Source: a virus
Lineage: Duplodnaviria; Heunggongvirae; Uroviricota; Caudoviricetes
DNA length: 37,915 nucleotides
Strand: one strand, 5' to 3'
IMG/VR virus record: IMGVR_UViG_2913123054_000005
Span: 1 to 37,915 of that record
The notes beneath the pieces are model-generated. The model saw only the letters and a program-made list of their open reading frames with translations, ran no database searches and was not told the origin of the DNA. Shown here piece by piece: positions 28,114 through 29,257 of this stretch (position 1 is the first letter of the stretch; every line of letters begins with the position of its first letter). Position numbers and translations under genes: made by a program.

Positions 28114-28763
28114 GCCGCCATCTCCCTGACCAGTTTTTCCGCCTGCTGGCGAACCTGCACCAGAAAGGCTTCACCACATGCCTCAAGTTCATCGCGCCCG
28201 ATGTAGCTGATTGCCGGTCCCTTCCAGGTCTTGTCGAAAACAGCAATAGCACCAGCGAAGAAAGCGCCTGTCGGCACCTGCCTCTCATCCTTCGGGATAA
28301 ACCAGGCAGGCAGTTCAAAACCAATACGCCCGCGAATAAAAGCAATATGGTCCGCATCTTCCGGCCACCACACTTCGCTGGTGGCAGCTTTGATCAGGAA
28401 AACATAGCGCCCGCCCTTATCACGCATGGCACTGGCATGCTTCATGATGTAACGCATGCCGGTGATGTATTGCCCCTCATGCTGACTGGCGCGGCTGTAT
28501 GGGGGATTACCAAAGGCAGCACCTTTAAGCTCCGCAAGACGTTCTGACCAGTCATGCGCCAGCGCGTTGTCTTCCGCCGTGTAATACGCAGCACATTTGG
28601 CGTTATCACCGTCAGTGAACAGATCCAGAACAAACGGGCCAAACAGGGTGTTAATTCCCCAGAAAATGTTGTCCGGCGTGCGCCACTGATCGCCCACTTC
28701 CTTCAGTTCATGGGCTGGTTTGTTCCGCAGTTCCACCAGCTCCTGGCAATATTTATTACTCAT
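28110..28763 (-). CDS. DNA N6-adenine methyltransferase (phage Dam-like, orphan)
   Basis: NPPY-type motif (GNPPY); start taken at ATG 28763 (MSNKY...), which overlaps the upstream stop as TAATG. No restriction partner nearby. Confidence 0.7.
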   Translation of the reverse strand: MSNKYCQELVELRNKPAHELKEVGDQWRTPDNIFWGINTLFGPFVLDLFTDGDNAKCAAYYTAEDNALAHDWSERLAELKGAAFGNPPYSRASQHEGQYITGMRYIMKHASAMRDKGGRYVFLIKAATSEVWWPEDADHIAFIRGRIGFELPAWFIPKDERQVPTGAFFAGAIAVFDKTWKGPAISYIGRDELEACGEAFLVQVRQQAEKLVREMAA

Positions 28764-29257
28764 TAAGCCCCCACGTAATTCCCTGACAGATACCACTCAT
28801 CACCCGATACAGCTCGCTTGCTGCTTTTCCGTAAGCACTGCTCACGACGCGCCAGAAAATTGTTTCGTTCTGGCTGGGAGTGGCTTTCACGGAATGCCGC
28901 CATCCACACGGTTGCAGCACGACGGTATAAGCCTCTTGACTCCAGTTCTTCAGCCTGGCGGGTCAGGCACAAAATCACCCGGGGATCGTTAGTGCCGACA
29001 TAGAAATTGCGCACAGGTCTGGTTTCACGAACTGGTTGTGGTTCCGGCTCCTGCGCTCTCTCAGTCAGGCGCGGGAAATGTCTGCGTGTATCCCCTTCAC
29101 AACGGTGAGCCACACGCCCACTCTGACGTAACTTGCTTGCTGACTGCAGTACGCGCTGCCGTGAGTAACCTGCAAAAGCATCCGCAATGTCTCCGGAAGT
29201 ACACCCCGGATGGGCTTCAATGAATTTCTGAACGTCATTCAAAAGACTCATGATCAC
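28763..29257 (-). CDS. Putative regulator with PerC-like C-terminal motif
   Basis: 164 aa; AEELESRGLYRRAATVW...RREQCLRK resembles the PerC/Pch activator signature as recalled from memory (not verified by search); GTGA-coupled to the rep gene. Confidence 0.4.
   Translation of the reverse strand: MIMSLLNDVQKFIEAHPGCTSGDIADAFAGYSRQRVLQSASKLRQSGRVAHRCEGDTRRHFPRLTERAQEPEPQPVRETRPVRNFYVGTNDPRVILCLTRQAEELESRGLYRRAATVWMAAFRESHSQPERNNFLARREQCLRKSSKRAVSGDEWYLSGNYVGA

Follow-up and report, generated by a model that had tools for sequence, protein, structure and literature searches.

PerC/Pch and ANR proteins

[quoted passage not shown] These single-domain proteins of 85-104 aa are encoded on mobile elements and match the Pfam PerC model (PF06069) over positions 1-89 at ~150 bits. 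Activation of LEE1 by PchA occurs solely through relief of H-NS/StpA/Hha silencing; PchA has no homology to known DNA-binding proteins, and many sites in the K-12 backbone are bound by Pch (PMC4764244). Other family members that cover the complete model are often inactive or repressive: PchD has no effect on ler and PchE a less than 2-fold effect (PMC5931665), LEE1 is unaffected by the PICI PerC homologues of EDL933 and CFT073, and it is repressed by the PerC-family protein EcCIMP1_025, which its authors suggested to be ANR-like (PMC11773190). Neither PchE nor the PICI PerC-like proteins are LEE activators (PMC5931665, PMC11773190). The phenotypes described for PchE concern curli, adhesion, and flagella, with curli and adhesion being repressed (PMC6265319, PMC7369912).

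ANR proteins, such as Aar and Rnr, are ~63 aa long (60-70), lack a DNA-binding domain, and accompany AraC/XylS regulators. Aar is a three-helix protein of 63 aa without a DNA-binding domain that binds H-NS directly and acts through physical contact with H-NS and with regulators of the AraC type (PMC5570504).

Identity of the PerC-like gene

The window analyzed here (37,915 nt, the whole of the Caudoviricetes record IMGVR_UViG_2913123054_000005) carries a lambdoid prophage that looks complete, with repressor, cro, cII-like, full-length initiator, Dam, RusA, Q, lysis, and structural genes. The gene of interest lies in its early-right region, with the replication gene on one side and RusA/Q on the other, in agreement with the nin-region location assigned to it by a sequence-only reading of the window. 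The ORF occupies positions 28763-29257 on the minus strand, encodes 164 aa when read from the GTG at 29257, and ends with TAA (28763-28765). The true start is likely the ATG at 29251, giving a product of 162 aa, because it is preceded at a distance of 6 nt by a Shine-Dalgarno-like AGGGGG run and distant homologues begin at the equivalent "MS-L."

This gene is not new: it is a further copy of yfdN, an Escherichia coli prophage gene annotated previously. The window protein is identical to YfdN of E. coli K-12 (b2357) at 158 of 164 residues (96%), aligns with PHROG 1324 from end to end (E=4e-78), and is named yfdN, "PerC family transcriptional regulator," in RefSeq. Its place in the YfdN orthologue group follows from full-length near-identity together with yfdO-like and yfdM-like neighbors. 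K-12 yfdN, located in the cryptic prophage CPS-53/KpLE1, likewise has an initiator remnant (yfdO) upstream and a methylase remnant (yfdM) downstream; the module is truncated in K-12, in contrast to the apparently complete window prophage, and the two start codons are GTG/ATG in the window and ATG/ATG in K-12. The same protein is encoded by SfV (orf40), mEp460 (gp44), and Stx2a_1447 (gene 16) at 95-99% identity and by ST64B (sb43) at 68%. The gene occurs in over 1000 complete E. coli genomes and, among phages, in the viable SfV and mEp460 as well as in SfII, ST64B, and several Stx2 phages. Lambdoid phages of the SfV/ST64B/mEp460 type, and the CPS-53 remnant of K-12, carry yfdN as a conserved gene of the early operon. 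As originally flagged, the finding matters little, this being a routine, already annotated prophage gene. The literature searched yielded no experiments on YfdN function, and no phenotypes of the kind described for PchE are described for YfdN.

A PerC core joined to a predicted winged helix-turn-helix domain

The sequence-only reading had likened the C-terminal half of the 164-aa protein to PerC/Pch-type activators, and this resemblance was borne out by profile search and alignment. The outcome named there as refuting the idea, a lack of any significant match to the PerC family, did not occur. The motif that it quoted is present in the window protein exactly as given (...RQAEELESRGLYRRAATVWMAAFRESHSQPERNNFLARREQCLRK...). 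Pfam PerC (PF06069) matches aa 98-151 (28799-28960) at E=1e-9, its 39 bits exceeding the gathering cutoff of 22.6, and residues 94-145 are 40% identical to Sakai PchE in a BLASTP comparison (E=2e-10). Residues A100, L103, E104, G107, Y109, R110, R111, A112, A113, and W116 of YfdN, and likewise E127-R128, R135-R136, and C139, align with PerC, PchA, and PchE, such that every hallmark core residue common to the EPEC PerC, PchA, and PchE proteins is also found in YfdN. The alignment confirms a resemblance far above chance, within a conserved helical core of ~50 residues for which YfdN and PerC/Pch share the motif A..LE..G[LF][YW]RRAA..W...ER...RR..C. A six-frame search of the whole window found no second occurrence of this core motif.

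The match to PF06069 is nevertheless partial, covering only positions 5-58 of 90, whereas PchA and PchE cover positions 1-89 at 149 and 153 bits; functions established for PchA may therefore not transfer to YfdN. Distant two-domain homologues score 20-35 bits against the same model. The C-terminal segment common to PerC, PchA, and PchE (F..L.KAV....MG[IL]...FR.Y) is absent from YfdN, which instead ends in a tail of its own (aa 150-162; 28766-28804, minus strand) with the subfamily-specific motif W-[YF]-L-[AS]-G-x-[YF]-V-G. This motif is absent from PerC, PchA, and PchE, but two-domain homologues as distant as ~25% identity retain it, and G161 hardly ever varies; the structural model of the tail is of low confidence. 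The PerC core itself (aa 90-149; 28805-28984, minus strand) is predicted to form a three-helix, TPR/MIT-like hairpin, embedded here in a two-domain protein; the ANR proteins, such as Aar and Rnr, are small three-helix modules by themselves. The protein-protein contact mode of Aar fits this TPR-like predicted fold. A PDB search found no solved PerC-domain structure, and the TPR-like three-helix matches obtained with the core are generic.

The N-terminal extension had also been singled out as atypical of short PerC proteins. Indeed, ~90 residues of YfdN have no counterpart in PerC/Pch (85-104 aa), and they contain a separate conserved domain (aa 1-60; 29072-29251, minus strand) that is, as modeled, a winged helix-turn-helix (wHTH) domain with three helices and a beta-hairpin wing. 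The AF2 topology (H3-13, H19-25, H31-44, E47-52, E55-60) has pLDDT values of 85-91. In Foldseek searches, this domain superposes at ~2 Å rmsd on the wHTH domains of ArsR/SmtB, MepR/MarR, and BlaI/MecI, with E-values of 0.002-0.1 that are weak given the short domain. Because Foldseek with the whole YfdN model gave no match at E<=0.001, the assignment relies on the topology, on the low-rmsd superpositions, and on independent profile matches. The latter include BlaI, MecI, and MarR, matched by the YfdN family profile against the PDB at E=4e-4 to 9e-4, and weak MarR-type matches of the N-terminal domain in PHROGs and NCBIfam. Distant two-domain members match MarR_2 below threshold, and one of them carries the NCBI name "MarR family"; among Pfam wHTH models, none reaches threshold for the window protein. 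DNA binding by this domain is predicted only. A weak PHROG match of the N-terminal domain to a "Ren-like exclusion protein" (E=0.015) was also recorded.

The two domains are connected by a Pro/Glu-rich linker (aa 61-89; 28985-29071, minus strand) that is predicted to be disordered, with pLDDT below 50 at residues 63-85. It varies in length and sequence, being gappy and unconserved in the alignment of two-domain homologues, and shows the highest dN/dS of the three YfdN regions (0.14-0.38), compared with 0.1-0.25 in both domains. Thus, yfdN is a real gene under purifying selection. Among 1.84 billion cluster representatives, we detected ~25 two-domain representatives at 23-45% identity. The combination of wHTH domain and PerC core defines a subfamily conserved across Enterobacterales down to 23% identity. 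This conservation and the purifying selection led us to reject an annotation artifact or a fusion as the source of the N-terminal extension. The hosts include K-12, UPEC, Shigella, Salmonella, Citrobacter freundii, Cronobacter, Atlantibacter, Erwinia amylovora, and others. Most of these hosts belong to genera that are not known to carry LEE.

With 162-164 aa, a wHTH domain, and a disordered linker, YfdN differs from the small single-domain PerC proteins, including PchE and the PICI proteins, which are ~90 aa long, lack a wHTH domain, and match the PerC model in full. It differs similarly from the one-domain ANR proteins. The ANR model NF033650 scores 22.5 bits against YfdN (E=7.5e-5), 27.6 bits against P0225, the best subfamily member (E=2e-6), and 17.9 bits against PchE, with a curated cutoff of 32 bits. 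ANR membership of YfdN was rejected because its score lies below this cutoff. The PerC label conceals the wHTH plus PerC-core architecture, and a DNA-anchored core would offer a tractable route to what the core binds, the mechanism of the PerC core being still poorly defined.

yfdN follows the replication initiator in the early operon

Immediately upstream of yfdN is the gene for a 330-aa O-like/DnaD-like replication initiator (29254-30246, minus strand), which has an ...IPAGFRG C-terminus and matches PHROG 391 "replication initiation O-like" at E=5e-101; a Pfam search of this initiator gave no match. The stop codon of the initiator gene is separated from the yfdN ATG by 2 nt and shares nucleotides with the GTG start, an arrangement that indicates translational coupling of yfdN to the initiator gene. 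Downstream is the gene for a phage Dam N6-adenine methyltransferase (28110-28763, minus strand; Pfam Dam PF05869, E=2.5e-45), the ATG of which overlaps the yfdN stop codon by 1 nt (TAATG) according to both the RefSeq coordinates and the sequence. In SfV, a dam promoter was annotated by the authors of that genome within the 3' end of orf40.

The initiator-yfdN arrangement is shared with SfV, ST64B, mEp460, and Stx2a_1447. More broadly, of 77 related viral loci, which were collected by three single-protein scans and represent three subfamilies that share only 24-35% identity with YfdN, 76 have an initiator-type gene directly before the gene for the YfdN homologue. The gene on the downstream side of the homologue varies among these loci. 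The N-terminal types of the initiators differ among YfdN loci as well, and YfdN proteins that are 96-98% identical pair with unrelated initiator N-terminal types. Genes for P-, DnaC-, or DnaB-like proteins are missing from all of the initiator-YfdN modules examined. Inside the initiator gene, ~530 nt upstream of yfdN, a repeat search revealed an iteron array of about five 23-nt units with a 13-nt perfect inverted repeat (29787-29905). This array is probably the phage origin, by analogy with lambda, in which ori sits inside gene O.

A CI-type repressor gene (31511-32137, plus strand; Pfam HTH_3 and Peptidase_S24) is divergent from the string of cro, cII-like, initiator, and yfdN genes. Upstream of this string, a consensus scan of positions 27300-32300 found a weak candidate for a pR-like promoter, a sigma-70 match at 12 consensus positions of which 9 agree (31440-31468, minus strand). 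It is the sole promoter-like site upstream of yfdN on that strand within this interval, and the scan detected no promoter of yfdN's own. The rightward operon containing yfdN is presumably held silent in the lysogen by the CI-type repressor. Given this location in a repressor-controlled pR operon and the negative promoter scan, expression of yfdN in a quiet lysogen appears doubtful. In CFT073 under nitric oxide stress, yfdN was induced jointly with adjacent prophage genes (PMC5320621). The position of yfdN within the early operon distinguishes it from pchA, a separate gene near the lysis region of Sp4.

Possible roles of YfdN

We tentatively favor the possibility that YfdN is a DNA-tethered modulator of the PerC/ANR type that acts on the nucleoid or on a partner protein during phage early development. 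Upon inactivation of the CI-type repressor, yfdN would be transcribed from pR together with the replication initiator. The wHTH domain would then anchor YfdN to DNA, and the PerC core, joined to it by a flexible linker of ~25 residues, would serve as a protein-protein interaction module. This module could remodel or displace a nucleoid or regulatory partner, possibly an H-NS-type silencing complex as in the cases of PchA and Aar, and thereby favor the expression of early phage genes and/or the function of the origin. The link to H-NS is drawn by analogy, from distant relatives and from the sub-threshold ANR match. In view of the constant pairing with the initiator, YfdN more probably acts primarily on the phage early/replication region than on a host virulence locus.

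The pairing fits a role in replication as well as one in transcription, and a somewhat unlikely alternative is that YfdN is a replication accessory protein, the partner of the initiator, occupying the slot of the lambda P/DnaC-like loader. In that capacity, it could assist in assembling or activating the replisome at the origin, for instance by bridging the initiator-ori complex to host DnaB/DnaC or by remodeling ori DNA. The position of yfdN directly after the initiator gene and its translational coupling to that gene, both here and in the four phages named above, the persistence of the upstream initiator in nearly all viral loci despite the variable initiator N-terminus and downstream gene, the lack of P-, DnaC-, and DnaB-like proteins in these modules, and the proximity of the iteron origin are all consistent with this role. 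So is the locus of ECs_1073, an initiator with an SfV orf39-like C-terminal half (41-49% identity, IPxGFRG tail), which is followed by an IstB/DnaC-like ATPase (ECs_1074, matching IstB_IS21 at E=4e-19). The combination of a wHTH domain with a helical C-terminal domain also loosely recalls DnaD-type organizers. However, YfdN shows no similarity to lambda P, DnaC/IstB, DnaD, or DnaT and contains no Walker motif, and its sole significant homology is to the PerC regulators. The likeness to lambda P and DnaC-like loaders is one of position only, without homology or an ATPase motif and with different predicted folds. A loader identity by homology was rejected, as Pfam, NCBIfam, and PHROG searches produced no match to P, DnaC, or IstB. 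The pairing of near-identical YfdN proteins with unrelated initiator N-termini argues against a tightly co-evolved, initiator-specific contact, although the shared C-terminal tail could still provide the contact. Furthermore, gene order is indirect evidence, and phages can use host DnaC alone.

That YfdN is an ANR-like anti-activator or repressor, with a core that binds and inactivates an AraC/XylS-type transcription factor or another phage or host regulator to a net negative effect, seems improbable to us. The ANR matches of YfdN, P0225, and PchE point in this direction, as do the repression of LEE1 by EcCIMP1_025 (PMC11773190) and that of curli and adhesion by PchE (PMC7369912, PMC6265319), but all these matches fall under the curated cutoff, ANR proteins lack the DNA-binding domain that is predicted for YfdN, and linkage of yfdN to a gene of the AraC family is not seen in the window. 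The sequence-only reading had raised the possibility that the prophage could regulate chromosomal genes through a PerC/Pch-type protein; that YfdN is such an activator and switches on host virulence loci, such as LEE1/ler, we consider very unlikely. The core with all its hallmark residues, the activation of ler by PerC and PchA/B/C, and the occupancy of many K-12 backbone sites by Pch are compatible with such a role, and yfdN has been deleted from a K-12 ler::lacZ reporter strain as a possible confounder, as a precaution only (PMC5931665). Against it, every tested activator carries the C-terminal third of the PerC model, which is missing from YfdN, and even members covering the complete model are often inactive or repressive. 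In addition, the subfamily occurs in genera not known for LEE, including Erwinia, Cronobacter, and Salmonella, and yfdN belongs to a lytic early operon, in contrast to a moron with its own promoter. Control of host virulence genes or activation of LEE by YfdN is thus not supported, and the PerC label of YfdN does not predict virulence-gene control.

A further reading, which we regard as unlikely, is that YfdN-type proteins are obligatory partners of the initiator in SfV/ST64B/mEp460-like phages, DNA-tethered PerC/ANR-type modules in the helicase-loader slot that either clear H-NS-type nucleoprotein from the origin and early region or recruit host replication factors to them. The fixed initiator-YfdN pair in these loader-less phages raises the question of how such phages start replication or shield their early region from host silencing. 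The phage group concerned is widespread and includes Stx2-converting phages and serotype-converting Shigella phages. If the proteins were indeed obligatory partners of the initiator, the ancestral job of the PerC family would be in mobile-element replication or early development, and LEE activation by PerC/Pch would be a later co-option. Such an ancestral role would fit the short PerC homologues located beside primase genes of P4-like elements and PICIs. PchE (ECs_1588, in the Sp7 P4-like element) and the PICI PerC-like proteins, like yfdN, adjoin the replication genes of their elements (PMC11773190), the order at the PchE locus being primase ... pchE.

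Identity, distribution, and gene context of yfdN

The minus-strand ORF at 28763..29257, with a PerC-like motif in the C-terminal half of its product, is yfdN, a gene already known and annotated. The protein is 96% identical to YfdN (b2357) from the E. coli K-12 cryptic prophage CPS-53/KpLE1, and the RefSeq label already reads "yfdN: PerC family transcriptional regulator." YfdN proteins of 95-99% identity are encoded by SfV (orf40), SfII, SfIV, mEp460 (gp44), and several Stx2a/Stx2c phages, Salmonella phage ST64B encodes a relative with 68% identity (sb43), and the 3.4-kb yfdN segment is found at at least 80% coverage in 1063 of 5426 complete E. 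coli genomes. [quoted passage not shown]

Counted from GTG, the ORF encodes 164 aa. The real start is probably the ATG at 29251 (162 aa), which has an AGGGGG run 6 nt upstream; the equivalent "MS-L" forms the first residues of YfdN homologs down to 23% identity. The stop codon of the upstream initiator gene lies 2 nt ahead of this ATG, and downstream, the stop codon of yfdN and the ATG of Dam overlap (TAATG); thus, yfdN sits inside an operon whose genes are closely packed. Read from 31.3 kb to 24.8 kb, the minus strand encodes cro, a cII-like YmfL-family gene, DUF4222, the O-like/DnaD-like replication initiator (29254-30246), and yfdN, followed by Dam, a protein consisting only of a LexA DNA-binding domain, RusA, KilA-N, DUF968/HNH, and Q. 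A CI-type repressor (HTH_3 and S24; 31511-32137) is divergent from this string. No promoter-like site was seen between the pR-like site (31440-31468) and yfdN, so that expression would begin only upon induction.

A divergent two-domain branch of the PerC family

The resemblance of the C-terminal half to PerC, noticed in the sequence-only reading, was borne out. Residues 98-151 match the Pfam PerC family significantly (PF06069, E = 1e-9, 39 bits; gathering score, 22.6), residues 94-145 are 40% identical to PchE (BLASTP, E = 2e-10), and in a joint alignment with O157 Sakai PchE and PchA and pMAR7-encoded EPEC PerC, YfdN retains all hallmark residues of the core, A..LE..G[LF][YW]RRAA..W...ER...RR..C[LI].K. 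However, YfdN covers only model positions 5-58, whereas PchA and PchE cover positions 1-89 of 90 (149 and 153 bits). In PerC, PchA, and PchE, the core is followed by another conserved segment, F..L.KAV....MG[IL]...FR.Y; YfdN and its relatives lack it and terminate with W[YF]L[AS]G.[YF]VG.

AlphaFold2 modeling of YfdN revealed two confident domains (pLDDT 85-91), namely, three helices with a beta-hairpin (residues 1-60) and three helices (residues 90-149; pLDDT 90-96 when modeled alone), connected by a disordered Pro/Glu-rich linker (residues 63-85) and followed by a low-confidence 13-residue tail. The N-terminal domain superposes on the winged-helix domains of ArsR/SmtB, MepR/MarR, and BlaI/MecI at about 2 Å, with weak Foldseek E-values; independently of the structural comparison, a sequence profile of the subfamily matched BlaI, MecI, and MarR in the PDB (E = 4e-4 to 9e-4), distant members match MarR_2 just under threshold, and one of these is named "MarR family" at NCBI. 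With the core shared, the C-terminal third missing, and a winged helix-turn-helix (wHTH) added, YfdN thus represents a divergent two-domain branch. Rare in-frame fusions of the initiator HTH_36 winged helix to YfdN in E. coli contigs (P0027, 234 aa; P0105, 186 aa) look like deletion products. The P0105 junction falls at the structurally equivalent position of the wing (…RRQG|TRRHF…), which fits a wHTH in the same register in YfdN.

Among 1.84 billion cluster representatives, a profile search found 146 matches, about 25 of them full-length two-domain proteins (138-165 aa, 23-45% identity), along with many short PerC-only proteins aligned to the core alone. The two-domain members come from Citrobacter, Lelliottia, Atlantibacter, Kluyvera, Cronobacter, Franconibacter, Erwinia amylovora, Kosakonia, and Mangrovibacter, and the subfamily is also present in Escherichia, Shigella, Salmonella, and Hafnia. 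Both domains show dN/dS of 0.1-0.25 (Nei-Gojobori; somewhat higher in the linker) and are therefore maintained by selection.

Pairing with the replication initiator

Using three subfamily members 24-35% identical to YfdN, we collected 93 viral loci and recognized a homolog in 77, in 76 of which the ORF directly upstream is of the initiator type, either O-like ("MSLLMPSR...") or HTH_36-type ("MS[TV]KLS..Y"), with no Walker A motif in these upstream proteins. The start and stop codons of the two genes overlap or abut, and different N-terminal types of initiator accompany nearly identical YfdN proteins. The downstream gene varies (several methyltransferases, a PAPS-reductase-like protein, and others). 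No P-, DnaC-, or DnaB-like gene adjoins the initiator in these loci or in SfV, ST64B, mEp460, or Stx2a_1447. The Sakai initiator ECs_1073 shares its C-terminal half and ...IPxGFRG tail with SfV orf39 and ST64B sb42 but is followed by an IstB/DnaC-like ATPase, not by a YfdN homolog.

The tail ...(D/N)(V/T)DYS(Q/E)IP(A/E/P)GFRG is common to initiators with unrelated N-terminal DNA-binding domains (29254-29330 in the window; L098:2680-3498, L099:2681-3499, and L004:4894-5985 among the comparison loci; ECs_1073 of Sakai Sp4); it may serve to dock a host replication protein, or it may mark a joint left by recombination. In P4-like elements and PICIs, short genes of the PerC family (pchE, EcCIMP1_025) adjoin replication genes of the element (PMC11773190), a placement that echoes the initiator-yfdN linkage; in Sakai Sp7 (L002:26103-27044), a primase gene is followed by an SSB-annotated gene and pchE.

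Possible roles of YfdN

PchA activates LEE1 solely by relieving H-NS/StpA/Hha silencing and is reported to have no homology with DNA-binding proteins (PMC4764244). Aar, the archetype of the AraC negative regulators (ANR), is a 63-aa three-helix protein without a DNA-binding domain that directly binds H-NS and AggR (PMC5570504). Taken with the TPR-like fold, this biology suggests that nucleoid or regulatory proteins are the targets of the PerC core, which would act as a protein-interaction module. In YfdN, the flexible linker tethers this core to the wHTH. Our tentative proposal, slightly short of an even chance, is that YfdN is a DNA-anchored PerC/ANR-type modulator, which would be made from pR upon induction and have its main action on the early/replication region of the phage itself. 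The main rival, a direct replication accessory in the "loader slot," agrees with the initiator-yfdN synteny but has no homology in its support, and we consider it rather unlikely. The NCBIfam ANR model scores below its cutoff of 32 for the YfdN core (22.5 bits, E = 7.5e-5), the subfamily member P0225 (27.6 bits), and PchE (17.9 bits), a PerC/ANR overlap also remarked upon previously (PMC11773190); an ANR-like negative regulator appears quite improbable.

The PerC-type assignment is correct for the core domain, but the virulence-activator function drawn from it is unsupported. We consider activation of host virulence genes by YfdN very unlikely: the C-terminal third carried by all tested activators is missing, yfdN is an operon-internal early gene rather than a moron, and the subfamily is spread over genera most of which are not known to carry LEE. 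Moreover, even complete PerC-family members often fail to activate LEE. PchD has no effect on ler and PchE less than a twofold effect (PMC5931665), the EDL933 and CFT073 PICI homologs have none, and EcCIMP1_025 represses LEE1 (PMC11773190); PchE represses curli and adhesion and supports flagella (PMC6265319, PMC7369912). Not all of these readings, including the proposed modulator, are mutually exclusive. The domain architecture of YfdN and its invariant pairing with the initiator add modest detail that is new and merits experiment, without making the finding novel.

Other features of the prophage

About five 23-nt iterons (29787-29905; core CAYTTTGACCYGATG, spacing 23-24 nt) lie within the initiator gene, with a perfect 13-nt inverted repeat (29854-29866/29893-29905), and probably constitute the phage replication origin. 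The 108-aa protein at 27787-28113 (minus strand) contains the LexA DNA-binding domain alone (Pfam LexA_DNA_bind, 1-65), without the S24 peptidase, and as a LexA-like protein it would not be cleavable. Most of the distant phage loci inspected conserve it a short way downstream of the YfdN homolog. It might modulate the SOS regulon in lytic growth. At 30203-30594 (minus strand), two ORFs overlap in different frames, both conserved in distant phages: a 112-aa ORF (30256-30594), which has no Pfam match and shares 61% identity along its entire length with L035:2781-3122, and the DUF4222 ORF (30203-30415), with 70-80% identity by tblastn in L010, L030, L035, and L081. RefSeq annotates DUF4222 only; the two genes may truly overlap, or the arrangement may be the product of a frameshift. 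The structural half (1-24900) encodes tail sheath, tape measure, DNA circularization protein, portal, and terminase, and the phage is therefore contractile-tailed and SfV-like with a lambdoid early region. At least 80% of this 24.9-kb part is present in only 8 complete E. coli genomes, so that the mosaic combination is uncommon.
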